From NCBI GenBank assembly GCA_049644325.1, contig JBARRR010000039.1, positions 19,867 through 83,866 on the forward strand: 64,000 nt of DNA. The letters run 5' to 3'. A model generated the notes under the pieces. It ran no database searches. It was not told the origin of the DNA and saw only the letters and a list, made by a program, of their open reading frames with translations. Source of the stretch: Candidatus Dormiibacterota bacterium. Its GTDB lineage: Bacteria; Chloroflexota; Dormibacteria; DASZGP01. The translations under genes were made by a program, and so were the position numbers. Shown piece by piece: positions 2 to 56,864 of this stretch (the first letter of the stretch is position 1; every line of letters starts with the position of its first letter).

Positions 2-3000
2 AACCGCGACACTAACGACCCGCAGACGGAGCAGAGCATATACGGGCACTTCAACGGTGAGTCGGGTCAGATGGTCGCCCAGGCTGACAACAACTTCGGC
101 AAGGCCGGGGTCTGCCCGCTCTGCCGCTACATCCCGATCAAGGCCGGCGACGAGGCCATCGACCGGCCCGACCGCGTCGCCGAGGCGATCGTCTACGCCG
201 CCGACAACGGGGTCAAGGTGATGGACGTGACCACCGCCGCGCTGGGCATCACGCCCCAGGTCCAGGCCGCCGTCGACTATGCCTGGCACAAGGGCATGGT
301 GATGGCCTGGGCGTCGAACGACTTCGAGTCCGCCGACCATACCGACGGCATGTTCTACCCCCACACCTGGCCTGGCAACGCCCTGACGGGGGACCACTCC
401 ACCAGGGGCGCCAACATCAACTGCACCGCACTGCCCGGCAACCCACCCAGCTGCCCTGCTTTCTACGCCACCAACACCACCTTCACGTCGCGCTCCTCGC
501 TGACCTCCTACGGGCCTCACAACCTCTTCTCGGTGCCCACCAACGACGGCTCCACGTCCTCAGGCATACCCACCCAAGCCGGGGTGGCGGCGCTGGTAGC
601 GTCCGAGGGCCTCAACGCCGTCGACGCCCACGTGCTCAGCTCCCAGCTCAACGCCGACGAGATCAAGCAGGTGGTTCGCGCCACGTCGACCTACATCGCG
701 TCGCCCAGCACCAACGCCGGGCCGCCGCTGTGCCCCACCTGCTTCCAGGGGATCACAGGGGCCACCTTCAACATCCAGTACGGGTACGGGCGCCCCAACG
801 TCTTCGCCGCCGACCAGGCGGTGGCCGGGGGCCATGTGCCGCCGACGGCTGACATCCGCTCCCCGAACTGGTACCAGGAGGTCGATCCCACCAAGCAGTC
901 GAAGCTGCACGTCACCGCCGACGTGGCGGCGCCGCGCTCGCAGACCGGTGCCTATACGTATGAGCTCCAGTATGGGCTGGGGCCGCAGCCCACCGAGTCC
1001 CAGTTCCACACGTTCGCCGGCGGCAGCGGCAGCGCGCCGGCCAACGTCGGAGCCGACCTGGACCTGTCGCAGGTCCCGTCGTCGTTCTGGTCGGGGCAGT
1101 ACAGCGTCGACCCCGTCACACGGCTCTCGATCGAGCAGTACGACGTGACGATACGGGTCCAGGTGCACGCCAAGGACGGGACCAGCACCGACCAGACGGG
1201 GGAGGACCGCCGCGCCTTCCACCTGCGCCATGACGCCACCGAGCGCCCCGGCTTCCCCGTCCAAATTGGCACGTCGGGTGAGTCGTCGCCGGCGATGGCC
1301 GACATCGAGGGCCGGGGATGGCTGGACACCATCGTCTCCACCGCCGACGGCAGCGTCCACGCCATCCGTCCCGACGGCACCGAGGCGCCGGGCTTCCCCG
1401 TCCACACCGGGCCGGCCCCGGGGATGGACCCGGCCTACGACACCAACTACCTCAACGCGCCGGGATGGAAGAGCGGGCTGCCGCGCCCGCGCGATGGCGG
1501 CCTATCACCGCTGGCGGTGGGCGACCTCCGCCATGACGGTGGCCTGGAGATCGTGGTGTCGACTTTCTCCGGCCACACGTACGTCTGGGACGGCGCCGGA
1601 CGGCTGCTGCCCGGCTTCCCGGTGCTCAACGGCAACCCCGCGTTCTACCACATGTCGGTGCCGCCCCCCGACACGCCCTACTCCTTCGAGCCGGAGAACA
1701 TCACCGGCGGCTCGCCGGTGCTGGCCGACCTCAGCGGCGACGGCAGCCTTGACATCATCCAGGTCGCCGGTGACAACCGCATCTACGCCTGGCATGTGGG
1801 CGGTGGCGGTGTCAGCCAGGTCCCGGGGTGGCCGGTCTGCGACATCTTCGACCTCGACGGCAGCGGCAAGCCGGCGCCGATCTCCGGCGCCTGCGTCGAG
1901 CCGGCCCAGCACGGCAACTTCATCCACACCCACGACTCCAAGATCGTGCCCACGCCGGCGCTGGCCGACGTCAACGGCGACGGCCACCCGGACCTGGTGG
2001 TCGGCCTGGTCGACAGCACGTGGGACAAGACATCGCCGCTGGGCAGCAACAAGATCACCGGCTACCTCGAGGCCTTCAGCTCGCGTGGCACGCTCTCCAG
2101 CAACACGGGGGAGATTCCCGGGTGGCCGGTGGCCATCCCTGGCCTGATCCAGGGCTATGGGGTGGCCCAGGACTTCGTCACCCAGGGGGTCCAGTCGCCG
2201 GTAGTCTACGAGGCCGCCGCCGGGCCCCAGGCGGTGGTCAACCCCAACCTGTTCCTGCCCAGCAAGGTCGATGTGAGGACCGCGACGGTGTCTGGCAGCC
2301 CGTTCGCCGGCGGGGCCATCGCCCCGATCGCGAGCTCCAACATCTCGGTCGGTGGACCGCTGATCCAGTTCACCACCTCACCCAGTGTTGGCAACCTGCT
2401 GGGGACGCCGACGCCCCAGGTGGCCCAGTCGGGTTCGGCCGCCGCCGGGGTGGCCACGGGCATCACCCAGACGCCGGGCCTGGGAATACGCGTCGACAAC
2501 GGCATGGCCGCCTGGGACCCGGCTACTGGCGTGGCCCTGGCCCAGTACGGCCAGTACGTCCAGGGGCTCGGGTTCTTCACCGCCCCGGCCATCGCCGACG
2601 TGACCGGTGACGGCAGGCCCGACATTATCCAGTCCGCCGACTCCGCCGCGGTGATGGGCTTCGACGGGCTGACCGGGCAGCCGGCCGCGGCCTTCCCCAA
2701 GTGGAGCGGCGGGTTCAGCCTCTTCACGCCGGCGGTGGGTGACCTGGTCGGCAGCGGCAAGGTGGCGGTGGCGGCCAGCACTCGCGAGGGGTACCTGCAC
2801 GTCTGGGACACGCCAGGGCTGACCAGCGCCAACCACGAGGCATGGCACTGGCACCAGGACGATCGCAACACCGGTCACTACGGCACCGATACCAGGCCGC
2901 CGGCCGGCATCCGGGACCTGCTGGCCACGCAGGCGGCCTCGGGCGACACGCTCCATTTCACCGCGCCCGGCGATGACTGGAACTACGGCACGGCCGCCGC

Positions 3001-3355
3001 CTACCAGGTCCGCCGCAGTGACAAGCCCATCAACCAGGACAACTTCGGCGCCGCCACCGTGGTCGACGTCGGCCAGAAGCCGCAGGCCGCCGGCGCCTCG
3101 GAGTCGATCACCGTGCCCCACGTAGATGGCACCGTCTACTATGCCGTCCGGGCGGTGGACACCGCCGGCAACATCGGCCCGGTGCCGCTGGCGTCAGGGA
3201 CGGCCAACGGCGGCACGCCCGCCGGTGGTGGGCCGTTCTCCCTGCCCAACACCGCCGCCGGGTCGGGCGGACTGGCGGCGCCGGCCGGGCTCTTGCTGGC
3301 CCTGGTCGCGATTCGTGGAACCTTGACCTGGCGCCGGCGGAAACGGTCCGCCTGA
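2..3355 (+). CDS. Cell-surface subtilisin-like serine peptidase (S8). It is partial at the 5-prime end, because the frame is open back to the window edge. It carries FG-GAP/VCBS-like beta-propeller repeats, a C-terminal Fn3-like region and an LPXTG-like sorting signal.
   Basis: The S8 core is visible after the catalytic His: AIVYAADNGVKVMDV...MAWASNDFES (AGN-like) and GSTSSGIPTQAGVAALV (GTSMAAP-like Ser motif). There are at least five blades of the form ADLSGDGSLDIIQVAG, ADVNGDGHPDLVVG and ADVTGDGRPDIIQSA, with recurring PGFPV/PGWPV. The C-terminus is LPNTAAGSGG, a hydrophobic stretch, then RRRKRSA. There is no stop between nt 2 and 71 in this frame. Confidence 0.85.
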   Translation, partial: NRDTNDPQTEQSIYGHFNGESGQMVAQADNNFGKAGVCPLCRYIPIKAGDEAIDRPDRVAEAIVYAADNGVKVMDVTTAALGITPQVQAAVDYAWHKGMVMAWASNDFESADHTDGMFYPHTWPGNALTGDHSTRGANINCTALPGNPPSCPAFYATNTTFTSRSSLTSYGPHNLFSVPTNDGSTSSGIPTQAGVAALVASEGLNAVDAHVLSSQLNADEIKQVVRATSTYIASPSTNAGPPLCPTCFQGITGATFNIQYGYGRPNVFAADQAVAGGHVPPTADIRSPNWYQEVDPTKQSKLHVTADVAAPRSQTGAYTYELQYGLGPQPTESQFHTFAGGSGSAPANVGADLDLSQVPSSFWSGQYSVDPVTRLSIEQYDVTIRVQVHAKDGTSTDQTGEDRRAFHLRHDATERPGFPVQIGTSGESSPAMADIEGRGWLDTIVSTADGSVHAIRPDGTEAPGFPVHTGPAPGMDPAYDTNYLNAPGWKSGLPRPRDGGLSPLAVGDLRHDGGLEIVVSTFSGHTYVWDGAGRLLPGFPVLNGNPAFYHMSVPPPDTPYSFEPENITGGSPVLADLSGDGSLDIIQVAGDNRIYAWHVGGGGVSQVPGWPVCDIFDLDGSGKPAPISGACVEPAQHGNFIHTHDSKIVPTPALADVNGDGHPDLVVGLVDSTWDKTSPLGSNKITGYLEAFSSRGTLSSNTGEIPGWPVAIPGLIQGYGVAQDFVTQGVQSPVVYEAAAGPQAVVNPNLFLPSKVDVRTATVSGSPFAGGAIAPIASSNISVGGPLIQFTTSPSVGNLLGTPTPQVAQSGSAAAGVATGITQTPGLGIRVDNGMAAWDPATGVALAQYGQYVQGLGFFTAPAIADVTGDGRPDIIQSADSAAVMGFDGLTGQPAAAFPKWSGGFSLFTPAVGDLVGSGKVAVAASTREGYLHVWDTPGLTSANHEAWHWHQDDRNTGHYGTDTRPPAGIRDLLATQAASGDTLHFTAPGDDWNYGTAAAYQVRRSDKPINQDNFGAATVVDVGQKPQAAGASESITVPHVDGTVYYAVRAVDTAGNIGPVPLASGTANGGTPAGGGPFSLPNTAAGSGGLAAPAGLLLALVAIRGTLTWRRRKRSA

Positions 3356-3377: not shown

Positions 3378-4352
3378 CTAGGCCAGCAGCTTGTCCAGCG
3401 CCGCGGCGATCTCGTCGCCGCCGGTAGCGCCGGAGAACTTATAGGCCAGGTTGCCGCCGCGGTCGACCAGCATCACCCATGGCTCGGTGTCGAGCTTCCA
3501 CTCGGTGAAGGTGGGGGAGAGGGTGGCCTTGCTGAAGTCGGCGTTGTCCGGGCGTCCGCCCTTGTAGACCTCGATGTGGACGAAGTCCACGCCCCGGGCC
3601 CGGTAGGGTGCCTCCACGGCCTTGACCGCGTTGAGCTCCGGGGCGCAGGTGCGCGACTGGCAGAAGCCGGGAGTGCCCATGTAGATCGCGGTGACGTGGT
3701 GGGCCGCGATCGCCGCCGCGATCGAGGTGTAGTGCATGTCACTGGGCGGCGAGCCGGTGTCGATGGTGCCGATGTCGCTCACCTGTGAAGCCGTCGGGTT
3801 CTCGCTCCTTGGCGCCGGCGCCCCCACCGCGATCCCCGGGTCCTGGCCGAGGACCAGGTAGGAGAGATCGCTCTGCGCCTTGACCCCGTCCTTATCGGCC
3901 TGGACGGCGACGTGGTATTGGCCGGGCTTGTCGAACGTTTGGTAGATGGTGTAGACGCCCCGGTTGATGTTCTTGTCGGGGCTCTCGATGCCCTGACCGT
4001 GGTACGACCCCTTCTGCTGGGGGCCGATCGCCTGCGCCTGGCCGCCCGAGGTCGGCACCGTGAACACCTGGGCGATCACGGTGGCGCCTGAGATCACGCC
4101 GCCGCTGGGGTCGGTGACCAACAGGCCGATTCGCTGGTTGGGGCCGACCACGCCGCAGGCGACGCCACCACAGGGGCCGCTGGAGCTGGCGCTGGAGACG
4201 ATCACCGCCTGCAGCCCGGGCGCCGCCGATGCCGTCTGGGTGGCGCCTGTGCTGGAGGTGGCGTCGCATCCGGCAAGCGCCACGGTGGCAAGGGCCAGGC
4301 AGATCGCGTGGCGACGCCAGCGGGCGTGCGAGGTCCGAAGTCCGCTTATCAC
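3378..4352 (-). CDS. Secreted lipoprotein of unknown function, possibly thioredoxin-like (C-x4-C). The start is uncertain; the ORF stays open up to 4496.
   Basis: The lipobox LALATVALAGC is preceded by RWRRH. A GTG at 4352 gives a clean signal peptide (M-ISGLRTSHARWRRHAICLALATVALAGC). The motif FCQSRTC lies in the C-terminal half. The long N-terminal extension from the ATG at 4496 would overlap the divergent gene. Confidence 0.55.
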   Translation of the reverse strand: MISGLRTSHARWRRHAICLALATVALAGCDATSSTGATQTASAAPGLQAVIVSSASSSGPCGGVACGVVGPNQRIGLLVTDPSGGVISGATVIAQVFTVPTSGGQAQAIGPQQKGSYHGQGIESPDKNINRGVYTIYQTFDKPGQYHVAVQADKDGVKAQSDLSYLVLGQDPGIAVGAPAPRSENPTASQVSDIGTIDTGSPPSDMHYTSIAAAIAAHHVTAIYMGTPGFCQSRTCAPELNAVKAVEAPYRARGVDFVHIEVYKGGRPDNADFSKATLSPTFTEWKLDTEPWVMLVDRGGNLAYKFSGATGGDEIAAALDKLLA

Positions 4353-4369
4353 TGCCCCGATACTACGAA

Positions 4370-4909
4370 GTGGTGTTTCGATCGCGGTTAGGGATCCGCC
4401 GGCATCAGGCGGCCGCGCTGATCTCAGTTCTCTGCCTGGGCGTGGTCGGGTGCCAGGCTCCCTGGTCGGGGTCATCCCCGACCCCGCCGACGCCACCGAC
4501 GCCGGCCCCGGCCTTCTCCCTCACCGGGCTCGACGGCCAACCCCATGCCCTGAGCGACTACCGCGGCAAGGTGGCGCTGATCAACTTCTGGGCCACCTGG
4601 TGCATCCCCTGCCGGGCCGAGATCCCCGACCTCGAGCACGAGGCGCGGGTCCAGGACCCCGGCAAGGTCGTGATCCTGGGGATCGACTGGAAGGAGGGCG
4701 GACCCACGGCCCAGGCCTTCCTGACCGACATCGGCGCCCGCTACCCGGTGCTCCTCGACAGCGACGGCAAGGTCTACGACGCCTACGGTGTTCAGGGCCT
4801 GCCCCAGACGTTCATCGTCGACCGCGGAGGCGGGCTGTTGAGCTCAAGAACGGGCATCGCCAGCCGGGACCAGATCGAGAAGGAGCTGGCGGACGCGCTG
4901 GCGCACTAG
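4370..4909 (+). CDS. TlpA/ResA-like thiol:disulfide oxidoreductase lipoprotein (thioredoxin fold).
   Basis: It has a WCIPC CXXC motif, the motif ALINFWATWC and the lipobox LCLGVVGC. The ATG start at 4229 would overlap the divergent lipoprotein. An in-frame GTG at 4370/4373 gives MVFRSRLGIRRHQAAALISVLCLGVVGC. Confidence 0.8.
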   Translation: MVFRSRLGIRRHQAAALISVLCLGVVGCQAPWSGSSPTPPTPPTPAPAFSLTGLDGQPHALSDYRGKVALINFWATWCIPCRAEIPDLEHEARVQDPGKVVILGIDWKEGGPTAQAFLTDIGARYPVLLDSDGKVYDAYGVQGLPQTFIVDRGGGLLSSRTGIASRDQIEKELADALAH

Positions 4910-8993: not shown

Positions 8994-10289
8994 ATGGTCT
9001 CCGAGCTCCTCTCGCGCGGATTCCGGCGTGCACGTGCGCGCGCCGCCGGTTTCGCGCTGGTAACCGCGATCGGGCTCAGCCTTTTGGCGCCGGTGGGCGC
9101 ACTGGCGGCACCGAGCATCGCCGGCTGCCCCGTGTTCCCCGCCGACAACGTCTGGAACACCGACATCTCCTCCCTCCCGGTGCACGGGCTGAGCGGGGCC
9201 TGGCTCGGCAACATGGGGGGCGCGGGCCGCCACCTTCACCCCGACTTTGGCTCTTCGGGCGATCCCTCGGCGCCCTACGGCATCCCCTACATCGTGGTCA
9301 ACGGCTCCCACGCCAAGGTCTCGGTCACCTTCCAGTACGCCGGCGAAAGTGACAGGGGGCCCTACCCATTCGGCCCCGACACCCCCATCGAGGGCGGCCA
9401 GAACGCGGGCGGCGATCGCCATGCATTGATGGTGGACAGCAGCAGCTGCACCCTTTACGAGCTCTACAACGCGCGGTACAGCTCCGCTGGCTCAACCGCC
9501 GGGTCGGGCGCGGTCTTCAACCTCCGCGCCAACGGGCCCCTGCGCCCGGCGACGTGGACCTCGGCTGACGCCGCCGGTCTGCCGATATTGCCGGGCCTGT
9601 TGCGCCCCGAGGAGGTCCGCGCCGGGGTCGTCAACCACGCCATCCGCTTCACCGCCCAGAGCACCGACCGAAGCTTCATCTGGCCGGCGCGCCACCAGGC
9701 GGGGTCGGCCAGCAACGCCGCCCTGCCGCCGATGGGCGCCCGCTTCCGGCTCAAGGCGGGCTACGACATCTCGCACTTCCACGGCGCGGCGCAGGCGGTC
9801 CTCAACGCCATGAAGCGCTACGGATTGATCCTGGCCGACAACGGCTCCAACTGGTACTTCCAGGGCGCGGCCGACAACAGCTGGGACGACACCATGATCA
9901 ACGAGCTCAAGACTGTTCCGGCCGGCGCCTTCGACGCCGTGGACGAGTCGTCGCTGATGATCGACCCCAACTCCGGCCAGGCGCGGCAGCCCGGTGGGGC
10001 GACGGGACCGGTGTCGAACCGCGCCGCCACCTCATCGGCGCCGGCCGCTTCCGCGCCGGGCACTGCGGCGCCGGCGACCACCGCGACGGCAGACGCGACC
10101 CCATTGGAACAGCACGAGGTGGCCTTTGCGGACCCTGTCGTCGCCTCGACCGGTCGGGCCGCCACCGCCACCGGGGGTGCCCTGGCCGGCCAGTCGCCGC
10201 CGTGGCAGCTGGCCGTGGGGTTGGCGGCGGGCCTGCTGCTGGCGGTCGGCGTCGGTGGCGCCTGGCTCCTGCGCGGCCGGCTCCAGTAA
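8994..10289 (+). CDS. Secreted protein of unknown function, with an Ala/Thr-rich linker and a C-terminal membrane anchor.
   Basis: An N-terminal signal peptide is present (LVTAIGLSLLAPVGALAAPS). The C-terminus is GLAAGLLLAVGVGGAWLLRGRLQ, a hydrophobic helix with a basic tail and no LPXTG. Confidence 0.6.
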   Translation: MVSELLSRGFRRARARAAGFALVTAIGLSLLAPVGALAAPSIAGCPVFPADNVWNTDISSLPVHGLSGAWLGNMGGAGRHLHPDFGSSGDPSAPYGIPYIVVNGSHAKVSVTFQYAGESDRGPYPFGPDTPIEGGQNAGGDRHALMVDSSSCTLYELYNARYSSAGSTAGSGAVFNLRANGPLRPATWTSADAAGLPILPGLLRPEEVRAGVVNHAIRFTAQSTDRSFIWPARHQAGSASNAALPPMGARFRLKAGYDISHFHGAAQAVLNAMKRYGLILADNGSNWYFQGAADNSWDDTMINELKTVPAGAFDAVDESSLMIDPNSGQARQPGGATGPVSNRAATSSAPAASAPGTAAPATTATADATPLEQHEVAFADPVVASTGRAATATGGALAGQSPPWQLAVGLAAGLLLAVGVGGAWLLRGRLQ

Positions 10290-23607: not shown

Positions 23608-23649
23608 TCGCAGCCACGCGGCACCCGCGCCATAGAATTCAGGGAGAGG

Positions 23650-24750
23650 ATGCGTTTACTCCACGTCGCTGACCTGCATCTCGATCGAGCCTTTGGGGGT
23701 ATGGCCTTCGCCGGGTGCGATGGCGCCCGCCGGCGCAGCCTCCTGCGCCAGGGGCTGGAATGGGCCGTCGACACCGCCATCGAGGGCAGGGCCGACGCCG
23801 TGACGATCGGCGGCGACCTCTTTGAGATCGAGCACATCACCAGTGACACTGCGGCGTTTATCGCCCGGCAACTGGGCCGGCTGGACTGTCCCGTGGTGCT
23901 GGCGGCGGGTAACCACGACCCCGCCACGGCGGCGTCGCCCTACCGGACCCTGGAGTGGGCCGCCAACGTCACCCTGGCCCTTGACCCCGTCCCTGTGCGC
24001 GTGGAGACGCCGGACGCCGTGATCTGGGCGCTGGGCTATGCCAGTCGCGAGATCGACGGCGCCGCCTTGAGGTCCTTCCATGTTCCTCCGAACGACGGTC
24101 GCGCCCAGCTGCTGGTGGTCCACGCCGTGGACCTGACCCGGATGGGGACCGACCGAGATTGGGGCAGCCTGGGCCTGCTGCAGCCGGATGTGCGGGCGAT
24201 GGGCATCGACCACGCCCTCCTCGGCCATATCCACTCCGGCCAGGCCGGCGAGCTGATGTCCTGGCCGGGCTCGCCGGTGCCGCTGGATCCCAGCGAGACC
24301 AGCGGCAACCATGGCGCCCTCTGGGTGGACGCGACCCCGGAGCGCGTGGCGGTGGAGGCGGTCGCAGCCGGCCTCAGCCGCTTCGGGGCGGTCAGCGTCG
24401 ACGTCGCCGAGGTGGCCGACTCGTCGGAGCTGGGCAGCCGGGTTCGCGAGAGGCTGGAGGCGAGCCCCGAGCGCGAACGGGCGCTGGTCAGCATCAGGCT
24501 TTACGGCCGCCGCGCCAAGAGCCTGGCGATCGAGCCGGCAGCGCTGGCGGCGGCCGCCTCCGAGTCGGTGATGGGCGCCCTGGTGGCCGACGCCACCGAG
24601 CCCGAGGTCGACCTGGCCCAGCTGGCCCAGGAGCCCAACGCCCGCGGCAGGGCGGTGGCGCGTCTACTCGAGGATGGCGGGGACGTCGGGTTGCGGGCGG
24701 CCCAGCTGGTGGTCGACGCATTCGAAGGCGACATCAGGGTCCCGGCGTGA
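23650..24750 (+). CDS. SbcD/Mre11-like metallophosphoesterase (YhaO-like DNA repair exonuclease).
   Basis: The N-terminus is MRLLHVADLHLD, with GGDLFE and AAGNHD calcineurin-like motifs. Confidence 0.75.
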   Translation: MRLLHVADLHLDRAFGGMAFAGCDGARRRSLLRQGLEWAVDTAIEGRADAVTIGGDLFEIEHITSDTAAFIARQLGRLDCPVVLAAGNHDPATAASPYRTLEWAANVTLALDPVPVRVETPDAVIWALGYASREIDGAALRSFHVPPNDGRAQLLVVHAVDLTRMGTDRDWGSLGLLQPDVRAMGIDHALLGHIHSGQAGELMSWPGSPVPLDPSETSGNHGALWVDATPERVAVEAVAAGLSRFGAVSVDVAEVADSSELGSRVRERLEASPERERALVSIRLYGRRAKSLAIEPAALAAAASESVMGALVADATEPEVDLAQLAQEPNARGRAVARLLEDGGDVGLRAAQLVVDAFEGDIRVPA

Positions 24751-24766
24751 CCATGGGAGCGGCGCG

Positions 24767-26734
24767 ATGAGACTGGTGTCGCTCCGGGTGCGGGGCTACC
24801 GAAGGTTCCACGACATCCTGGTCGACTGCGACCACGACCGGCTGCTGGTAGTCGGTCCCAACGAGGCCGGCAAGTCGACGCTGATGGAGTGCCTGCTGGC
24901 CGGGCTCTTCGGGCTGGCGCCCAGCAAGCGGGGCGGTGGCCACCAGGGAGCGCTGCGCGACGCATCACCCTGGAATGGCGAGCCCTGCGGCCTGAGCCTC
25001 GCATACCGGCTCGACAGCGGGCGCATGGTCGAGGTCGACTGGGACTTCAGCGGCGAGCGCACCCAGGTCATCGACCACACCGGGGGTGACGACATCAGCG
25101 CGGAGTTCACCGGCGGCACCCACGGCTGGCTCGACGTCGGCCAGGCGATGCTGGGTGTGTCTTCGACGGTCTTCCGCCAGTTCACCTGCGTGGGGGAGGG
25201 GGAGCTGGCGGTGATCAGCGACGATGCCGAGATCCGCGAGAGCCTGCTCCGCCTCAGCGATTCCGGGGTTGACGTGCTGGTGGAGCAGGCAATCACCCGC
25301 TTGGAGGACGCTGCCCGCCAGTCGACCATCCCCAAGGCCAACTCCGCCACCCGCCGCAACCAGCTGGAGCGCGACCTGGTCGCCGCCCAGAGGGAGCTGG
25401 ACCGGGTCACCGCGGCGCGGGCCGAGCTCGACTCCGACGTCCACGCGATTGCCCGGACCGAGTCGGCGATCGAGCGCGCCCGCGACGAGGTCGCCGGGAT
25501 GATGGCCGAGGACGACCGCCGCCAGGAGGAGCAGCGGCGCCTGAGCGCGGAGATCGAGCGGGCCTACGGCCGGCTGGCCGAGGCCGAGCTGCGCCGGGCG
25601 TCACTGAGCGCCGACGCGGATGTCCCCAAGGAGGGCCCGCCCTGGAGCGACGCCGACATCGAGACCGCCCGCCAGCTGCTGGTCAGTCCCGAGGAGGCGG
25701 GGAAGCGCCCGGGTCTGCTGCCGCTGATCGTCGGGCTGCTGCTCATCCTGGCGGGCATCGGCGGCCTCGCCGGTGGCCTGGTCGCCCAACTGGGGCCGAT
25801 GCTGGCCGCATCCGCCGCGGTGGCGGCCATTGGGGTCCTGCTCGTGACCCGAGGCGGCATGGGGGCCGCGCGGGCGCGGCTGAGAGTCGGTGCCATGACC
25901 TTCCCTGACAGGGCAGCGCTGATGATCGCCCTCGACCACCAGCGAGCGCGGCGCGAGCTGGCGCAACAGCAGAAGGCGGTTGACGACATCCAGGCGCGGC
26001 TCGACCAGCTGCTCCAGCCGGCTGCGGACATCGATGGCGGCGCGCCCCGCGAGGCCCAGGCCCGCCTCAGCGCCGCCAAGGTGCGACAGACCGAGCTGCG
26101 GCTGCAGCTGGAGCGGCAGCGCACGTCGTTGTCGGTTCGCACCAGCCAGGTCGGGGACGTCGCCGCACTCGAGGAGCAGGTGGCCGGGCTCGGAGCGCAG
26201 ATCGGCGAGCTGGAGGCGTTCGGTGAGTCGGCGCGTCTGGCGGCCCAGCACCTGAAGCAGGCGTCGGAGGAGATCCGACGCGCCTACGCGCCCAAGCTCC
26301 AGGCCTACCTTTCCCGTGACCTGCCACGGATCACGTCGGGACGCTATTCCGAGGCGGTGGTCAACGACAAGTTCGAGGTCATGGTCAGGGCTCCCGAAAC
26401 CAAACAGATGGTGGACCTGGGCCGCCTCAGCCGGGGCACCCAACAGCAGATCTACCTGCTGCTCCGTCTGGGCCTCCTCGACATCGTCGGCTCCAAGGCC
26501 GAACGGCTGCCACTGTTCCTTGACGACGCCCTCGCCCTGAGCGACGAGGACCGCCGCTCCGAGCTGCTCGCGGTGCTGGAGTCCGAGGACCGCCAGGTGA
26601 TCTACTTCACCGCGCAGGAGACCACCGCGGCATCCGCGTTCGCGGATGCGTGGCACCGCGTTCTTCTGCCCGGCCCCAGTGCCGCCGGCAGCGCGCCGCC
26701 CGAGCTCAAGGTTCTCGACTCGCCCCGGGGTTAG
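24767..26734 (+). CDS. SbcC/Rad50-like SMC-type ATPase (YhaN-like) with internal transmembrane segments.
   Basis: Walker A is VVGPNEAGKSTL, the signature-like motif is LSRGTQQQI and the Walker B/D-loop is LPLFLDDAL. There is a coiled-coil middle. Two hydrophobic helices are present: LLPLIVGLLLILAGIGGLAGGLV and LAASAAVAAIGVLLV. Confidence 0.75.
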   Translation: MRLVSLRVRGYRRFHDILVDCDHDRLLVVGPNEAGKSTLMECLLAGLFGLAPSKRGGGHQGALRDASPWNGEPCGLSLAYRLDSGRMVEVDWDFSGERTQVIDHTGGDDISAEFTGGTHGWLDVGQAMLGVSSTVFRQFTCVGEGELAVISDDAEIRESLLRLSDSGVDVLVEQAITRLEDAARQSTIPKANSATRRNQLERDLVAAQRELDRVTAARAELDSDVHAIARTESAIERARDEVAGMMAEDDRRQEEQRRLSAEIERAYGRLAEAELRRASLSADADVPKEGPPWSDADIETARQLLVSPEEAGKRPGLLPLIVGLLLILAGIGGLAGGLVAQLGPMLAASAAVAAIGVLLVTRGGMGAARARLRVGAMTFPDRAALMIALDHQRARRELAQQQKAVDDIQARLDQLLQPAADIDGGAPREAQARLSAAKVRQTELRLQLERQRTSLSVRTSQVGDVAALEEQVAGLGAQIGELEAFGESARLAAQHLKQASEEIRRAYAPKLQAYLSRDLPRITSGRYSEAVVNDKFEVMVRAPETKQMVDLGRLSRGTQQQIYLLLRLGLLDIVGSKAERLPLFLDDALALSDEDRRSELLAVLESEDRQVIYFTAQETTAASAFADAWHRVLLPGPSAAGSAPPELKVLDSPRG

Positions 26735-49836: not shown

Positions 49837-49893
49837 CCGTCCCCGGGCCGGGGCCATCACCTACAATGCGGCGCACATGAGAGGGATGGACCG

Positions 49894-50850
49894 GTGACCT
49901 ACGGCACGATCAAGTGCCCCAACTGCGGGGCGCCCATCCCGGTCAACAGCGAGGCGTGTCAGTACTGCGGCGAGGCCCTGCCCAAGGCCGCGCCCCCACC
50001 GCCGCAGGCGACGCCTTCGGTCATGCTCAACTTCAACCAGGAGGCCTTCGACCAGGTGGCGGTCGCAAGCGCTCGCAGCTTCCTGTGGGCCTTCATCGCC
50101 ATCCCCATCGTGCTGGTGGTGATCGGGATCATCGTCGCCGTTACGGTGTTCTCGAGCCTGGGACGCAGCACCTCCAGCGGCCTGTCTCTCGGCACCTCCA
50201 GCAACGTCTCCCAGCTGCAGTCCAAGAAGTGCGAGAACTGCAGCCTGCCCAACACCACCGCCAACAACACCGACCTCTCCGGGGGCAAGTTCAGGGGCAT
50301 CAGCCTGGTCAACGGCAGCTTCCGGGGCAGCAACTTCAAGAACGCAGACCTGTCCCGGGCCGACCTCAGCAACGCCAAGATGTCCAATGCCGACCTGTCG
50401 GGGGCCGACCTCACCGGGGCGAAGCTCAGCAACGTAGACCTCAGCGGCGCCAACCTCTCTGGCGCCAAGCTGGACTCGGTCACCGCCGCCAACACCGACT
50501 TCAGCCAGGCCAACCTGAAGGAGGTGAGCATCACGGGGACGCCGGCGCTGGTCAACGCCGTCCTCAACGGGGCCGACCTGACCGGCGCCACGCTGCAGAA
50601 CGCGGACCTGACCAATGGCAAGCTCGACCACGCCAAGCTCCGCAGCGCCAGCCTGACCGACGTCAAGCTGATCAACGGCATTCTCACCGGGGCCGACCTC
50701 ACCAGCGCCAAGCTGACCCGCATCAATTTCATCAACGCCAACCTGACCGGGGCCACGACCGCCGGGGTGACGTCCACCGGGACCAGCACGTGGACCAACG
50801 CCCACTGCGTCGACGGCGGCGTGGTGCCGTTCGGCGGCAAGTGCTTCTGA
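49894..50850 (+). CDS. Pentapeptide-repeat protein with an N-terminal C4 zinc ribbon and one TM.
   Basis: The zinc ribbon is CPNCG...CQYCG and the TM is LWAFIAIPIVLVVIGIIVAV. About 30 A(D/N)LSG-type pentapeptide units follow. Confidence 0.8.
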   Translation: MTYGTIKCPNCGAPIPVNSEACQYCGEALPKAAPPPPQATPSVMLNFNQEAFDQVAVASARSFLWAFIAIPIVLVVIGIIVAVTVFSSLGRSTSSGLSLGTSSNVSQLQSKKCENCSLPNTTANNTDLSGGKFRGISLVNGSFRGSNFKNADLSRADLSNAKMSNADLSGADLTGAKLSNVDLSGANLSGAKLDSVTAANTDFSQANLKEVSITGTPALVNAVLNGADLTGATLQNADLTNGKLDHAKLRSASLTDVKLINGILTGADLTSAKLTRINFINANLTGATTAGVTSTGTSTWTNAHCVDGGVVPFGGKCF

Positions 50851-51506: not shown

Positions 51507-51620
51507 GAACGATCAGTCTTCTCTTCGTCCCCCCTCGATTGGATTCCCACTTTTCGCCCCTGCGTCCCTTCGGCACATTGACAGGGGGGCCAGCGGTCCC
51601 ATCAGACGCCCGATGAGCCG

Positions 51621-52067
51621 ATGTTCGTCGGCCAATATCGACACTCGATCGACGCCAAGGGACGGCTGGCCATCCCGGCCAAGCACCGGGAGCAGCTGCC
51701 CACGGGGTCGATCATGACCATCGCCCCAGAGAACTGCCTCCGGGTGTACCCACCACAGGAGTGGGAGCGGGTCAGCGGGGAGATGCGGCTGGGCGCCGCC
51801 AGCGACCCGATGGAGACCAACCTGGCGCGGCGGATGTTCAGCCAGGCGCACGAGATCGAGTTCGACAAGCAGGGTCGGGTCCTGATCCCGGCCTGGCTCC
51901 GGGAGGCGGCGGGCCTGGGCGCCAGTGCCCAGGTAATCGGCGTCGCCAACGTCGTCGAGATCTGGAGCGACGCGAACTGGACGGCCTTCGTCGAGCAGAC
52001 CGGCGACTTCACCGGGCTGGCCAACGCCGTTGCCGAAAAGCGGCAGGGCAGCCCCGGAAATCCCTAG
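51621..52067 (+). CDS. mraZ: Transcriptional regulator MraZ.
   Basis: It starts MFVGQYRHSIDAKGRLAIPAKHR and has a duplicated SpoVT/AbrB fold. Confidence 0.9.
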   Translation: MFVGQYRHSIDAKGRLAIPAKHREQLPTGSIMTIAPENCLRVYPPQEWERVSGEMRLGAASDPMETNLARRMFSQAHEIEFDKQGRVLIPAWLREAAGLGASAQVIGVANVVEIWSDANWTAFVEQTGDFTGLANAVAEKRQGSPGNP

Positions 52068-53100
52068 ACCGACCGGGCCAGGGGGCTCGACGCGCCACCA
52101 ACCTGTTCTTTTACACGAATCAATAGAGATCCTCCAGCCCCGGCCGGGCGCCGTCTTCTTCGACGGCACCTTTGGCGGGGGAGGGCACTCCCGGGAGATC
52201 CTCAAGCGGATCAGCCCGGGGGGAATCCTCCTGGCCATGGACCGCGACCCCGAGGCCGCAGCCCGGGCCGAGCAGCTGAAGGCGGAGCACGGTGACGCGT
52301 TCCGCTTTGTCCAAGGGAACTTTGCGGATGCCAGCGACCCACTCGAGGCGCTGGGTACGGGGCAGGCGCCGCTCGACGGCGCCTTCCTCGACCTCGGGCT
52401 CTCATCGTTCCAGCTGGACGACCCCGAACGGGGCTTCAGCTTCATGGCCGACGGCCCCCTGGACATGCGCATGGACCCCGACCAGGGCCCCAGCGCCGCC
52501 GAGGTCGTCAACCGCTACCGCGAGGCGCGGCTGAAGGCCGTGATCCGGGAGCTCGGCGACGAGCCCTGGGCCGGCCCCATCGCCGCCGCGATCGTCCGCC
52601 GCCGCCGGCGCCAGCCCTTCCAAACCACGCGGGACCTCGCCGAGCTCATCGGCGGCGTCATCCCCCGGGCCCGGTGGCCAAGGCGCATCGACCCCGCAAC
52701 CAAGACCTTCCAGGCGATCCGCATGGAGGTCAACGACGAGCTTGGTTCACTGCGCGGGGGGCTGGAGGTAATCGTCAAGCACCTGAAACCAGGTGGCCGG
52801 CTTGGGGTCGTCTCATTCCACTCTCTCGAGGACAAGGTAGTAAAGGACTTTCTCAACGTCGAAGCAAAGGACTGCATCTGTCCGCCCCAACAGCCGGTTT
52901 GCACGTGCAACCACCTGGCGAGTCTCATCATCCATCCCCCCCATCCCCTAAGGCCGGGCGAGAGCGAGATCGAGGGTAATCCTCGGTCTCGTTCTGCCCG
53001 GCTGAGGGGCGCCATCCGGCTTCCCTACAGCGGGGCCATGCCGGCAACCAGGAAAGGTCGTAGCAGAAAACGAAGAAATGATCGCTCTCAGACTGAATAA
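52030..53100 (+). CDS. rsmH: 16S rRNA (cytosine1402-N4)-methyltransferase RsmH.
   Basis: It has HQPVLLHESIEIL and FDGTFGGGGHSREIL. The only canonical start upstream of the conserved N-terminus is the TTG at 52030, which overlaps mraZ by 38 nt. Confidence 0.8.
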   Translation: MPKSGRAAPEIPRPTGPGGSTRHQPVLLHESIEILQPRPGAVFFDGTFGGGGHSREILKRISPGGILLAMDRDPEAAARAEQLKAEHGDAFRFVQGNFADASDPLEALGTGQAPLDGAFLDLGLSSFQLDDPERGFSFMADGPLDMRMDPDQGPSAAEVVNRYREARLKAVIRELGDEPWAGPIAAAIVRRRRRQPFQTTRDLAELIGGVIPRARWPRRIDPATKTFQAIRMEVNDELGSLRGGLEVIVKHLKPGGRLGVVSFHSLEDKVVKDFLNVEAKDCICPPQQPVCTCNHLASLIIHPPHPLRPGESEIEGNPRSRSARLRGAIRLPYSGAMPATRKGRSRKRRNDRSQTE

Positions 53101-53563
53101 CGCTCCCGCCCGCCGGGCGCTGAGCCCTGACTCCAGGGTTAAGCGCTCGCGTGGCCTGGTGCGTATGCGCCGCCCGCGGTCCGCGGCCAGCTTGACTGCG
53201 GTCCTGCTCGGGATCCTGCTGCTTGGCGCCTTCGGCCTGCTCTACGTTGCCGCCACCGCGTCGGCCACCCAGGCCAGCTACCAGATCAACATGCTCAAGG
53301 GTGACCAGCAGAAGCTGATCGCCCAGCAGCAGTCGACCCGCTACCAGATCTCGATGGCGACCTCCGCCGGCCGCCTCGACGGCGACGCCTCGAGGATGGG
53401 AATGGTCCCCCAGAACCAGATCCAGTACCTGCCCGGCAGCCACAACCCGGTGGCGCTGGCGGGACCGCAGCAGGCCACCCCGACCGAGCCCAAGGGCTCC
53501 TTGCTGCAGCAGCTGGCCACCATCCTGGGGCGGCCCACCGAGGCACAGGCGAAGGGGCAGTGA
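53078..53563 (+). CDS. ftsL: FtsL-like cell-division protein.
   Basis: It has a single TM (LTAVLLGILLLGAFGLLYVAA) followed by a coiled coil (QINMLKGDQQKLIAQQQ). It is in the conserved position. Confidence 0.6.
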   Translation: MIALRLNNAPARRALSPDSRVKRSRGLVRMRRPRSAASLTAVLLGILLLGAFGLLYVAATASATQASYQINMLKGDQQKLIAQQQSTRYQISMATSAGRLDGDASRMGMVPQNQIQYLPGSHNPVALAGPQQATPTEPKGSLLQQLATILGRPTEAQAKGQ

Positions 53564-53640
53564 TGAGCTGGTACCGGCCCCACCCGCCCCCGATGCGCAG
53601 CTGATGCGCCGGGGATGGGGTAAATGGGAGTCGTAACCAG

Positions 53641-55455
53641 TTGAGCGAATCGTCGCGCGGGCGCCTGCGCGTCCTCTGGTTGATGGCCGGGGCCGCCCTG
53701 CTGGCCGCGATCCTGGTTTTCCGCCTGCTCTACTGGCAGGTTGCGGAGCACCAGCGCATCTCGGCATTGGCCGCCGACCAGCACCAGGTCACGTTCAAGC
53801 TGCCGGCCCACCGTGGCCGCATCCTCGACCGCAACGGCCAGCTGCTGGCGACCGACACCCCCGTCTTCAACGTCGTCGCCGCCCCCAACCTGATCCCCCC
53901 CGACCAGCGCCCCGCCATCGCCGGGCGGCTCTCGGTGCCCCTGGGGATGGAGCCACAGGAGGTCCTCAAGCAGATCTCCCAGCCGCTCAAATTCACCTAC
54001 ATCAAGCGCAAGGTGCCCAAGGCCGTCGGTGACCGCATCGATGCGATGCACCTCACCGGCATCGCCCTGGAGGCGGACTCCCAGCGTTCCTACCTGACCA
54101 GCGTCGACGCCCCGCCGACCACCCCCGGGCCGGTAGTGCTGCAGCCCTCGCCACTGCCGCTGGCGTCGCCTTCGCCGAGTCCTTCGCCAGGGGCGCCCGC
54201 GCCGCCGCCGATCCTGCCCCACTCGCTGGCCAGCAACCTGCTTGGCTTCGTCAACAATGACGGCGCCGGCCAGTACGGGCTGGAGCAGTACTACAACAAG
54301 CAGCTGAGCGGCACCGACGGCTTCGAGGCCAGCCTCAAGACCGGCGCCAACCAGACCATCACGCTCAGCGACGAACAGCGCAAGGATCCCCAGAACGGCC
54401 TCGACCTGCAGCTGGGCATCGACAGCCAGGTCCAGTTCTTCGCCGAGAAGGCCCTAGCGGATGGGGTGCGTAAGACCGGCGCCGAGTCGGGCTCGGTGAT
54501 CGTGATGGAGCCATCTACCGGCAACATCGTCGCCTGGGCCGACTATCCCAGCTTCGACGCCAACAACTTCGGCGGCACCGACGCCAAGCTCTTCACCGAC
54601 CCGATGGTCAGCGGCCTCTACGAGCCCGGCTCGGTGATGAAGCTGGTGACCATGTCCGGAGCCCTCGACAGCGGCTCGGTGACCCCGACCACCACCTTCA
54701 ACGAGACCGGCTCCGTCAACGTCGGCGGCTTCAGCATCCGCAACTGGGACGGCAAGGCCCACGGCAACATCACCATGACCCGCGTCATCGAGCAATCACT
54801 CAACGTGGGTGCCGTCAAAGCCCAACAGATGCAGGGCACCGACAACTTCCTCAACTACCTCACCCGCTTTGGCATCGGCAAGGGCACCGGTGTCGACCTC
54901 TCCGGCGAGGTCAACCAGCAGCTGCCGGCCAAGGCCGACTGGCACGCCTCCGAGCTGGCCACCGCCAGCTTCGGGCAGGGCGTGGTGGTGACGCCGATCG
55001 AGATGGTCGACGCCGTCAACACCATCGCCAGTGGCGGCCGCCTGGTGAAGCCGCGGGTGGTCACCGCCACGATCGACGGCAGCGGCCGGCGCACCGACCT
55101 CGCCCCCGACCCGGGCACCCAGGCCGTCAGCCCGCAGACCGCCGGCCAGATGCGCGACATGATGACCAGCGTGGTCGAGCACGGCTCAGGCTGGACCGCG
55201 AAGATGCCAGGTTGGACGGGGCGGGTGGCGGGCAAGACCGGCACGGCCAACATCCCCGAGAACGGCAAGTACACCGACAAAGTGGTGGCCAGCTTCGTCG
55301 GCTTCATGCCCGCGGAGAACCCGCGCTTCACGATGATCGTGATCATGCGCAAGCCCCAGGGCGGCGGGTTCCAGCAGGAGGGCACCTTCGCCGCGGCCCC
55401 GGTCTGGAAGACGATCGCCCAGCAGATCCTCGCGCAATGGCACATCACGCCGTAG
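53641..55455 (+). CDS. ftsI: Class B penicillin-binding protein (FtsI/PBP2-like transpeptidase).
   Basis: It has an N-terminal TM, SVMK (SxxK), SLN and KTG motifs. Confidence 0.85.
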   Translation: MSESSRGRLRVLWLMAGAALLAAILVFRLLYWQVAEHQRISALAADQHQVTFKLPAHRGRILDRNGQLLATDTPVFNVVAAPNLIPPDQRPAIAGRLSVPLGMEPQEVLKQISQPLKFTYIKRKVPKAVGDRIDAMHLTGIALEADSQRSYLTSVDAPPTTPGPVVLQPSPLPLASPSPSPSPGAPAPPPILPHSLASNLLGFVNNDGAGQYGLEQYYNKQLSGTDGFEASLKTGANQTITLSDEQRKDPQNGLDLQLGIDSQVQFFAEKALADGVRKTGAESGSVIVMEPSTGNIVAWADYPSFDANNFGGTDAKLFTDPMVSGLYEPGSVMKLVTMSGALDSGSVTPTTTFNETGSVNVGGFSIRNWDGKAHGNITMTRVIEQSLNVGAVKAQQMQGTDNFLNYLTRFGIGKGTGVDLSGEVNQQLPAKADWHASELATASFGQGVVVTPIEMVDAVNTIASGGRLVKPRVVTATIDGSGRRTDLAPDPGTQAVSPQTAGQMRDMMTSVVEHGSGWTAKMPGWTGRVAGKTGTANIPENGKYTDKVVASFVGFMPAENPRFTMIVIMRKPQGGGFQQEGTFAAAPVWKTIAQQILAQWHITP

Positions 55456-55466
55456 GCTTGCGGGCG

Positions 55467-56864
55467 ATGAGCTTTCGCCTCAGTGACCTCGTGGAGGCCA
55501 CCGGTGGGCGGCTGGTCGGCGGTGACCCCGCGATCACGCTGGAGCGCCTGGTCACCGACTCGCGACAGGCAGGCCCAGGCGCCCTCTTCGTGGCCCTCGC
55601 CGGCGAGACCACCGACGGCCACCGCTTCATCCCCGCCGCCGCCGGATCCGGTGCCTCCGCCCTGCTGGCCCAGTCGCTGCCCGAGGGCACCAGCACGCCG
55701 GCGGTGCTGGTGCCTGACACCAAGCAGGCCCTGGTCGACTTCACCCGGCACCAGCTGGCCCGGCAGCCGATCAAGGTGGTGGCGGTCACCGGCAGCGCCG
55801 GCAAGACCACCACCAAGGAGATGATCGCGGCGGTTCTCTCCCGCGCGTATGAGGTGCTGAAGACCGAGGGCAACCTCAATACCTACACAGGCGTGCCGAT
55901 GAGCATTGCCCTCCTGGAGCCGCGCCACCAGGTTTTCGTGGCCGAGTACGCCATGTCCGCCCCGGGCGAGATCGTTTTCCTTTCGCACATGGCGCCGCCG
56001 GACATCGCGGTCGTCCTCAACGTCGGGTTGGCCCACGCCGGCATGCCCGGGCTGGGCAGCATTGACGCCGTCGCCGCAGCCAAGCGCGAGCTGGTCGAGG
56101 CCCTGACCGACGACGGCACCGCGGTGCTCAACGCCGACGACCCCCGGGTTCGCGCGATGGCATCCGCGACCGGCGGCGAGATCGTCTTCTTCGGCGCCGG
56201 AGCGGCGCGAGACGACAGTCCTGCCGCGCCGCAGGTTCGGGCCCAGAGCATCAGCCTCCGCGGGCTAGACGGCAGCGACTTCGAGCTGGTGCTGCCCAGT
56301 GGCCGGGCGCCGGTGCGCCTGCAGGTCCCGGGCGAGCACGCCATCAATAACGCCCTCGCCGCCGCGGCCACGGGCTTCGCCATGGATGTGCCGGTCACCG
56401 ACATCGCGGCCGCCCTGGGCGCCTTCGCGCCGTTGGCGGGGCGCATGGTCCTGCGTCCCGGACGGAAGGGCTCGACCGTCATCGACGACACATACAACGC
56501 CAGCCCTGCCGCGGTTGAGGCCGCGCTGGCGGTGCTGCTGGCCGAGCGGGGGAGGCCGCGGCTGGCGGTGCTGGGCGACATGCTGGAGCTGGGAGACACG
56601 GCCGTCGAGGCGCATCGCCGCATCGGCGCCGCCGCCGCGGGCGCCGACCTCCTGGTCGTGGTTGGCGAGATGGCGGGCGAGATCCGAGCCGGCGCAATCG
56701 GGGCGGGGATGCCGGCGGACCACGTCGCCGAGGCCGCCGTTGATGACGTCGCTGCGCTGGTCGAGCCCCGGCTCGATGACGCGCTGGTGCTGGTCAAGGC
56801 CTCCCGCGGGGTCGCCCTGGAGAAGGTGGTCGCGGCGCTGGTCGAGCCCGAGGCCGGCCGATGA
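55467..56864 (+). CDS. murF: UDP-N-acetylmuramoyl-tripeptide--D-alanyl-D-alanine ligase.
   Basis: It has TDSRQAGPGALFVAL, VTGSAGKTTTKEM, DDTYNASP and KASRG, matching E. coli MurF blocks. Confidence 0.85.
   Translation: MSFRLSDLVEATGGRLVGGDPAITLERLVTDSRQAGPGALFVALAGETTDGHRFIPAAAGSGASALLAQSLPEGTSTPAVLVPDTKQALVDFTRHQLARQPIKVVAVTGSAGKTTTKEMIAAVLSRAYEVLKTEGNLNTYTGVPMSIALLEPRHQVFVAEYAMSAPGEIVFLSHMAPPDIAVVLNVGLAHAGMPGLGSIDAVAAAKRELVEALTDDGTAVLNADDPRVRAMASATGGEIVFFGAGAARDDSPAAPQVRAQSISLRGLDGSDFELVLPSGRAPVRLQVPGEHAINNALAAAATGFAMDVPVTDIAAALGAFAPLAGRMVLRPGRKGSTVIDDTYNASPAAVEAALAVLLAERGRPRLAVLGDMLELGDTAVEAHRRIGAAAAGADLLVVVGEMAGEIRAGAIGAGMPADHVAEAAVDDVAALVEPRLDDALVLVKASRGVALEKVVAALVEPEAGR

Follow-up and report, generated by a model that had tools for sequence, protein, structure and literature searches.

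What kind of enzyme is encoded at the 5' edge of a 64,000-nucleotide stretch of DNA from a Candidatus Dormiibacterota bacterium (GenBank assembly GCA_049644325.1, contig JBARRR010000039.1, positions 19,867 to 83,866 of the forward strand; the whole stretch is hereafter termed the window), and by what means would it be held at the cell surface? An earlier note, made from the sequence alone, had described the reading frame at bases 2 to 3355 as a surface protease of the subtilisin-like S8 family built on an FG-GAP propeller, with an Fn3-like module and a C-terminal LPNTA sortase-type anchor. On direct reading, all of the motif strings named in that note are present in the window-encoded protein. 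The note overlooked the truncation of the reading frame, a second beta-sandwich, the presence of about eight propeller blades, a Glu residue at the position of the catalytic Asp, and the exchange of anchors among lineages, and it is the last two of these features that make the family distinctive. We consider it fairly probable that the product is a secreted, surface-displayed serine protease of Dormibacterota that is anchored to the cell wall.

The reading frame is unbroken on the forward strand from base 2 of the window to a stop codon at 3353-3355 and constitutes the 3' four-fifths of the gene. A protein search showed its product to match, from end to end and at 100% identity, residues 277-1393 of WBD38_02505, here termed P0001, a protein of 1393 residues annotated as 'hypothetical protein' in a 'Candidatus Dormiibacterota' metagenome-assembled genome (MAG), on a contig of 102,908 bp. 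Residue numbers of the window protein equal those of P0001 minus 276. The true start lies approximately 828 nucleotides (nt) upstream of the window, and the 5' edge cuts off the signal peptide together with the initial third of the protease domain; the whole gene is present in a 97% identical copy at locus L005 (GTDB species representative SMAG_U6563). The window has a G+C content of about 70%, and housekeeping genes surround the protease locus.

The active site of a variant subtilase

Two features of the window concern the coding sequence as a whole and its catalytic domain:

2-3355, + strand: 3' part of the coding sequence (codons 277-1393 of P0001 plus stop), from the open reading frame and the protein match
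2-826, + strand: S8 (thermitase-like) catalytic domain, C-terminal two-thirds, with His at nt 47-49, oxyanion Asn at nt 317-319 and nucleophile Ser at nt 557-559

The proposal that an S8 subtilase and an FG-GAP propeller are joined in one protein was borne out by profile, structure and fold matches. For the protease part, a profile of the family matched solved subtilase structures (AK.1 protease, thermitase) at an E-value of 2.5e-16, phmmer gave 5e-10, and hhalign returned a probability of 98% for the alignment to thermitase; both the fold and the family match are those of S8 enzymes. The serine motif is likewise in place, with GSTSSG at residues 183-188 of the window protein and AGVAAL after it. 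Structure prediction with AlphaFold2 over the 1117 window-encoded residues, based on an alignment of 78 sequences, yielded a model with a predicted local distance difference test score (pLDDT) of 83.8 and a predicted template modelling score (pTM) of 0.88, in which the protease core extends to approximately residue 275 (window numbering); a second AlphaFold model, that of P0091, reached a pLDDT of 91.3 and a pTM of 0.92. His292, Asn382 and Ser462 of P0001 (window residues 16, 106 and 186) are invariant in 101 full-length homologues. In the P0091 model the His opens helix 201-210, the Asn follows strand 285-289 and the Ser opens helix 358-378, and the protein has the His at a helix start, the Ser in G-[ST]-S-x-[AG]-x-P and the oxyanion Asn by which S8 proteases are recognized.

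It is the third member of the triad that departs from this pattern. To our knowledge, all characterized S8 enzymes carry an Asp at the end of strand beta-1, in a D-[ST]-G motif, and in this family that position is occupied by Glu. The residue concerned, E126 of P0001 (in VAYMEGGVNW, upstream of the window), does not vary in any of the 101 full-length homologues, and the surrounding motif Y-x-E-G-G-[VI]-N-W recurs in all 50 GTDB loci that cover the region. Two lines of evidence identify Glu126 with the acid position, namely the topology of the P0091 model, in which the Glu comes right after strand 81-84 as expected of a subtilisin fold, and an alignment with relatives of 30-38% identity that have the full architecture, in which E126 falls in the column of their DSG, DTG or DCG motif (e.g. 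VVIAILDSGIRWDD...LNRGELPLP). These distant relatives share the insertions and the propeller of the P0001 family, and Peptidase_S8 aligns to them over profile positions 3-288, beginning at that very strand. In a motif count, EGG was found in all 92 readable close hits, and among the more distant 50%-identity representatives that were readable (n=66) the residue was D in 54 and E in 12. The change is accompanied by co-varying neighbors, DSG being replaced by EGG, HGTG by H-x-[DN]-G-E and AADE..HHN by SNDFES.DH.

Several observations weigh against this reading of the protease domain. With a profile of the N-terminal segment alone, a PDB search at E<=10 returned no hit, and the match of that profile to subtilisins is not significant. 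The Pfam model Peptidase_S8 (PF00082) scores 17.5 bits with the window fragment and 20.2 bits with full-length P0001, below the gathering cutoff of 21.8 that homologues pass. Finally, one hhalign alignment, of low confidence, placed D231 on the thermitase Asp; this candidate was ruled out because D231 (D160 of P0091) lies inside helix 158-165 and the family alignment favors E126. A further candidate counterpart of the catalytic Asp, H238, came from an hhalign run at low stringency and was dropped, as E126 falls on the DSG/DTG motif in the family alignment.

The same data can be read as the signature of a subtilase homologue that has lost catalysis and serves at the surface for binding or adhesion, the replacement of Asp by Glu marking that loss. 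The catalytic Asp is missing in the whole clade, a large propeller and an Fn3 module are domains typically used for binding, and the Pfam S8 scores are weak, all of which would suit a pseudoprotease. Loss of activity would nevertheless be hard to reconcile with the invariance of the His, the oxyanion Asn, the Ser, SNDFES and GSTS..P..AG over upwards of 100 sequences with identities as low as about 45%, with a Glu that is itself invariant and not drifting, and with neighboring residues that co-vary as if the site had been re-tuned. Moreover, Ser-His-Glu triads are established as functional in other hydrolase folds, among them the alpha/beta-hydrolases. We therefore regard a dead enzyme as quite improbable.

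Competence is favored by the strict conservation of all four residues (Glu, His, Asn and Ser), and the alignments and models suggest to us that these subtilases form a derived clade whose Glu-His-Ser triad is predicted to be competent. The broader proposition, that a clade spanning Dormibacterota, Binatota and Solirubrobacterales works with a Glu-His-Ser triad, re-tuned neighboring residues and interchangeable anchor cassettes, we put at slightly short of an even chance. We class P0001 as a variant subtilase and not as a standard member of S8: fold, His, Ser and Asn are those of the family, and the Asp is not. No report of a Glu-His-Ser subtilase was found in the searchable literature, a silence that is not evidence of absence.

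A precedent for carboxylate swaps within the subtilisin fold is provided by the sedolisins (MEROPS S53), which have a Glu in the triad. In these enzymes, however, Glu stands in place of the His (Ser-Glu-Asp) and the oxyanion residue is Asp instead of Asn, whereas the P0001 family keeps both His and Asn and has Glu in place of the Asp; among the tested profiles and the PDB, no S53 model or structure matched. The S8A enzymes thermitase and AK.1 protease differ from P0001 in having Asp (DTG) where the family has Glu (EGG), and in lacking both the conserved Cys pairs (CPxC, PCxxC) and the roughly 850 extra non-protease residues that follow the protease domain of P0001. They also lack an insertion of about 165 residues that is present in P0001 between strand beta-1, which carries the Glu, and the His helix (within P0001 residues 1-276; L005 10001-10830). 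This insertion carries two Ca-loop-like motifs, DLNGDGHFNVEDY and FDNDGNGYANDINGWNF, together with an invariant ITPEDLIVAF helix. The Cys pairs (CPxC at 314-317 and CPTC at 520-523) hint at disulfide bonds or a metal site.

The C-terminal cassette and the sortase question

Four elements are found at the C-terminal end of the protein:

3185-3241, + strand: Gly/Pro/Ala/Thr-rich stalk (residues 1062-1080), predicted to be disordered (pLDDT <50 at residues 1066-1082) and not conserved among orthologues
3242-3256, + strand: LPNTA (residues 1081-1085), candidate sortase site with the predicted cut between T and A, from direct reading and TIGR01167
3266-3331, + strand: hydrophobic membrane-spanning segment GGLAAPAGLLLALVAIRGTLTW, from direct reading; helix 1092-1116 in the model
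3332-3355, + strand: basic stop-transfer tail RRRKRSA and stop codon, from direct reading

The tripartite LPXTG-type signal ascribed to this tail (LPNTA, a transmembrane (TM) segment and RRRKRSA) stood up to examination: it passes the LPXTG_anchor model TIGR01167, which aligns to the last 59 residues over profile positions 1-33 of 34 with 16.9 bits, marginally above the cutoff of 15.9, and it is conserved in orthologues. A pentapeptide of the LPXTG type is thus combined with a hydrophobic stretch, 16-22 residues long, and a basic tail, and in the AlphaFold model LPNTA lies within a disordered stretch, residues 1066-1090. At the other end of the protein, P0001 begins with MVRGGMWPRGARWRQSVRVAGLTIVVAALVAPATLLASARVARA|AT, which is Sec-like by eye.

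Comparison of the 21 closest orthologues, which are 62-100% identical and all of Dormibacterota type, showed that [LTIV]PN[TS][AGS] is kept in 18 of them, while the surrounding Gly/Pro-rich stalk is unalignable. By position, Pro at 2 is found in all 21, Asn at 3 in 18 and Thr at 4 in 19; the variants encountered are LPNTA, LPNTS, LPNTG, TPNTA, TPNTS, IPNTG, VPNTG, LPNSS, LPNSG, LPRTS and LPFTS. Actinobacterial members of the family have a canonical LPATG, LPSTG, LPDTG or LAATG at the same position. Furthermore, in sister Dormibacterota genomes the protease gene is immediately followed by an unrelated gene of the penicillin-amidase family whose product has this cassette at its end:

L001, 14083-17103: penicillin-amidase tail with LPNTS, TM segment and RRRRRR
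L002 (and L009), L002 14098-17043: penicillin-amidase tail with MPTTS
L007, 7843-11025: penicillin-amidase tail with TPNTA

That two unrelated enzymes of one genome carry one cassette is what a dedicated sorting pathway predicts. The penicillin-amidase gene is absent from the window, and a scan of the six window frames for other LPXT tails returned the protease gene as the only one.

Anchoring to a wall presupposes a suitable envelope. Dormibacteraeota have been placed in a monoderm clade together with Chloroflexi and the candidate phyla radiation (CPR) (10.1101/2021.05.31.446380), and this placement makes wall anchoring plausible. The window also contains a dcw (division and wall-synthesis) cluster at about 51580-63400, recognized from sequence motifs only and including mraZ-like and ftsI-like genes (the latter for a penicillin-binding protein), mraY and a terminal ddl, which indicates that the organism makes peptidoglycan.

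A sortase gene, the presence of which had been proposed as the check on the anchor, was sought in several ways. Neither the window nor the stretches within 10 kb of the protease gene at 63 related loci yielded a sortase gene. Specifically, a TLxTC scan of all six frames of the 64-kb window gave none; PF04203 was not found in the neighborhoods of four homologues (L001-L004); and over 6605 open reading frames from the 63 loci (59 of them GTDB loci, 1.13 Mb) and the window, a His...TLxTC...Arg pattern produced only out-of-frame chance matches, and a phmmer search with Staphylococcus aureus SrtA, which is insensitive across sortase classes, gave nothing better than E>2. The top, non-significant SrtA match was a lipoprotein encoded downstream of the protease, which resembles a YtkA/redoxin-type protein and was rejected as a sortase.

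This result counts against sortase anchoring, as do three further points: a literature search found no paper linking Dormibacterota and sortases, the TIGR01167 score exceeds its cutoff by only one bit and, of 11 related tails scored, 7 do not reach that cutoff (the 4 that pass being this tail and 3 of the 10 others), and the hydrophobic segment contains an Arg. The missing sortase and the marginal model scores would equally fit a plain type-I transmembrane anchor, with LPNTA never cleaved and the protease tethered to the cytoplasmic membrane, and other secreted proteins of the window, e.g. the one encoded at 8994-10289, have a terminal TM segment and basic tail but no LPXT motif. Yet a simple membrane tether gives no reason for [LTIV]PN[TS][AGS] to be kept at a fixed distance from the helix while the stalk diverges, and it leaves unexplained both the same pentapeptide on an unrelated neighboring enzyme and the canonical LPATG of the actinobacterial orthologues. 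We judge permanent membrane tethering to be unlikely, and a sortase-type signal to be the best reading of the tail, given its model match, its conservation and the cassette shared with the neighboring enzyme.

As to the type of sortase, the suggestion of a class E or 'Chloroflexi-type' housekeeping enzyme found no support. LPNTA (LPXTA) is the published motif of class D, recognized by Bacillus anthracis SrtC in its substrates BasH and BasI, and class E sortases favor LAXTG (PMC8225981). The Ala at position 2 that would mark a class E substrate is not seen in the 21 close orthologues, all of which have Pro; LAATG occurs in one distant homologue, P0125. The class D substrates BasH and BasI have an identical LPNTA, with a hydrophobic segment and then a basic tail behind it, and in them the motif is cut after the Thr and joined to diaminopimelate cross-bridges (PMC8225981). 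They belong to another phylum and are sporulation-specific substrates, with a known sortase, whereas none was found here in the searched loci, and position 5 varies among A, S and G in the P0001 orthologues.

Under the preferred reading, a sortase-type signal, the protein might reach its site of action as follows. A Sec-type signal peptide (P0001 residues 1-45, assigned by eye) would export the precursor, which appears to have no I9-type propeptide; the stalk, LPNTA, the hydrophobic segment and RRRKR would then hold the precursor in the membrane until a sortase, presumably encoded elsewhere in the genome, cleaved after the Thr of LPNTA and linked the protein to peptidoglycan. The enzyme would thereafter stand on the wall of a monoderm cell on a stalk of some 20 residues. 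Its protease domain, beta-sandwich, roughly eight-bladed propeller with four Ca-type loops and Fn3 module are predicted to pack as one rigid body (pTM 0.88-0.92), in which the propeller and the accessory domains may, speculatively, bind or gate substrates. Catalysis would depend on a Glu-His-Ser triad, with the Glu at the end of strand beta-1 and a normal oxyanion Asn.

Anchor swapping across the family

The family extends well beyond Dormibacterota and is represented by 531 sequences at E<=1e-30; the 7,884 representatives obtained at 1e-3 are a number inflated by Fn3 and FG-GAP repeats. A literature search found no characterized member, nor any paper on S8 proteases combined with FG-GAP repeats. 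The 59 GTDB loci, all of which stem from MAGs, divide into 18 from Dormibacterota, 20 of Binatota type, 16 from Actinomycetota and 5 with doubtful labels. Five MAGs (L009, L029, L030, L049, L058) bear the titles Chloroflexota, 'Candidatus Solibacter' or Alphaproteobacteria, and their proteins cluster with the Dormibacterota or Binatota copies, the tail of L009 being the same as that of L002; mislabelling or mis-binning is the probable cause.

Across these lineages the C-termini differ in kind. The copies from Binatota, which are taken to be diderms, carry 'delta proteobacterium' or Binatus labels and end right after the Fn3 module. Members from Solirubrobacterales are mostly without a TM tail, and some of those from Actinomycetota have LPATG tails. 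One clade of Dormibacterota has LPNT[AGS] tails, and a second has [AP][ED]F[GAP] running straight into a TM segment, with an Arg cluster after it (P0022-P0046, L021, L032, L052). The distant full-architecture relatives at 30-38% identity mostly terminate in a Cys-rich GCGC sequence, a TM segment and RRR, a tail of the MYXO-CTERM type. Judged by these sequences, the family swaps anchors by lineage. NCBIfam recognizes the same 'choice-of-anchor' pattern, one architecture with different C-terminal sorting domains, in a number of its families; none of its choice-of-anchor models hits P0001, for which a partial CoaP_CTERM match of 9 bits was seen. The pattern furnishes an independent argument for regarding the tail as a modular sorting signal.

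The [AP][ED]F[GAP] tail may be an undescribed exosortase- or archaeosortase-like signal. A reading of the [AP]EFG tails as PEF-CTERM or PEP-CTERM was discarded, no NCBIfam model supporting it. These tails bear on the LPNTA cassette itself, as the latter could be a sorting signal for an enzyme other than a sortase, for example one from a so far undescribed Dormibacterota pathway akin to that acting on the [AP]EFG tails. The idea draws on the fact that the same protein elsewhere in Dormibacterota ends in [AP][ED]F[GAP], a TM segment and RRRR, an exosortase- or archaeosortase-like arrangement with no NCBIfam match, and on the MYXO-CTERM-like tails of the extended family, which suggest that anchor systems are freely exchanged. 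Set against it are the layout of the LPNT[AGS] cassette, which with its motif, short spacer, helix and basic tail is that of a sortase substrate, the end-to-end match of the tail to the LPXTG model, and the use of LPNTA as a proven sortase substrate motif elsewhere (PMC8225981). We consider a non-sortase enzyme highly unlikely, and a sortase-type signal remains our preferred interpretation of the LPNTA tail.

Domain architecture, genomic surroundings and significance

Between the catalytic domain and the stalk, the window encodes the following features:

845-1225, + strand: beta-sandwich between protease and propeller (residues 282-408), from AlphaFold, pLDDT mostly >90
1235-2881, + strand: FG-GAP beta-propeller (residues ~412-960), probably of eight blades, from Pfam and the model
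nt 1523-1549, 1727-1753, 1967-1993 and 2597-2623, + strand: four canonical D-x-x-x-DG-x-x-[DE] loops
nt 1247-1261, 1388-1402, 1610-1624, 1823-1837 and 2117-2131, + strand: five PG[FW]PV motifs (residues 416, 463, 537, 608 and 706)
2882-3184, + strand: Fn3 module (residues 961-1061), including YYAVRAVDTAGNIGP, from the AlphaFold beta-sandwich and homologous repeats

Residues ~412-960 are modelled as a long series of four-stranded repeats forming a closed propeller, and the FG-GAP repeats score above the Pfam cutoffs: FG-GAP_3 (PF13517) at E 4e-12 (47 bits; cutoff 26.9) and FG-GAP (PF01839) at 3.5e-8 (33.6 bits; cutoff 22.1). Eight blade starts of the type 'SP..[AVG][DN]' are readable in the sequence. 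The claim of at least five DGxxD-containing blades, each preceded by PGFPV or PGWPV, held for the latter motif, which occurs five times, and proved too generous for the former: strict DGxx[DE] is found in four copies (residues 512, 580, 660 and 870), with two degenerate loops in addition (EGRGWLD at 436-442 and GSGKVA at 917-922). Among known propellers, Foldseek matched integrin alpha and the KICSTOR complex, the latter match presumably being to the FG-GAP-type subunit ITFG2, as the output names the complex only. The FG-GAP propellers of integrin alpha and ITFG2 have FG-GAP/FG-GAP_3 repeats and DxxxDGxxD Ca-type loops in common with P0001; the best geometric fit is to the eight-bladed BamB, with which there is no sequence relationship. 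Unlike either, the P0001 propeller is fused to a protease, and two of its eight blades are without the FG-GAP loop signature.

The Fn3-like segment, recognized from GTVYYAVRAVDTAGNIGP at residues 1043-1060, lies in a module for which a beta-sandwich is predicted with a pLDDT of 93-97. Pfam fn3 (PF00041) gave no direct match on the window protein at E<=1, and the C-terminal region of TIGR00868 (CLCA), which we take to be the CLCA Fn3 domain, matches the window protein at 6.8e-5. In the representative search, the module of residues 961-1061 was also found in 9-38 tandem copies in giant proteins of 1100-5100 residues (P0123, P0129, P0202 and about 40 others). The copies in P0202 are recognized as Pfam fn3 at 2.3e-63, and the Fn3-like call is supported by these homologous repeats and by the confidently predicted fold.

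With the whole model as query, Foldseek against the PDB ranked the LPXTG-anchored SpyCEP and ScpA of streptococci first (6vjb, 5xyr, 7bj3, 1xf1), at about 10% identity, with propellers next. Like P0001, the streptococcal and lactococcal cell-envelope proteinases (the C5a peptidase ScpA, SpyCEP, PrtP) are large secreted S8 proteins with Fn3-type beta-sandwiches and a C-terminal LPXTG-type anchor. These virulence or nutrition factors of Firmicutes differ in possessing a PA-domain insertion, several Fn3 domains, an Asp-His-Ser triad and LPXTG, and in having no beta-propeller; in P0001 the PA insertion and the run of Fn3 domains before the anchor are not found, and a propeller fills the middle of the protein. 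The likeness is confined to architecture.

The protease gene lies in a conserved neighborhood with rpe/DUF309, at some loci the gene for the anchored penicillin amidase, a lipoprotein gene on the opposite strand, and those for MarR, a major facilitator superfamily (MFS) transporter and glpD; this setting indicates no specific substrate. The lipoprotein gene, directly downstream (3378-4496, - strand), encodes a LAGC lipobox, an F-C-Q-S-R-T-C motif and weak hints of YtkA-like and Redoxin domains, and is also present in L001, L002 and L003. Farther along, 8994-10289 (+ strand) encodes a secreted protein of 431 residues with no Pfam hit, ending in 'PPW', a TM segment and a basic tail; its orthologues follow glpD (L001 22709-23995, L003 22307-23596), and it may be surface-anchored by a different tail. 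Two other loci of the window appear ordinary: an SbcCD-like pair, Metallophos then AAA_23 (23608-26734, + strand), and a gene for a pentapeptide-repeat protein (49837-50850, + strand; Pfam 3.7e-37).

Many members of the family are named 'hypothetical protein' because the S8 model scores below threshold, and annotation is affected to that extent; even if the enzyme were ordinary, a large unnamed family (the 531 representatives noted above) would gain a corrected annotation. Hundreds of otherwise intact subtilases with an invariant Glu at the Asp32 position would offer a test of variation in the charge-relay acid, and the clade, if it does work with a Glu-His-Ser triad, would represent a third natural acid solution in a subtilisin-fold site, besides those of S8 (Asp-His-Ser) and S53 (Ser-Glu-Asp). 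The family is also a natural experiment in anchor swapping, its members having sortase-type, exosortase-like or MYXO-CTERM-like signals, or none, according to lineage and envelope type. For the Dormibacterota, abundant and uncultured bacteria of soil, the protease and its neighbors provide concrete candidate substrates for a sortase-type pathway, whose [LT]PNT[ASG] motif differs from the actinobacterial housekeeping motif.

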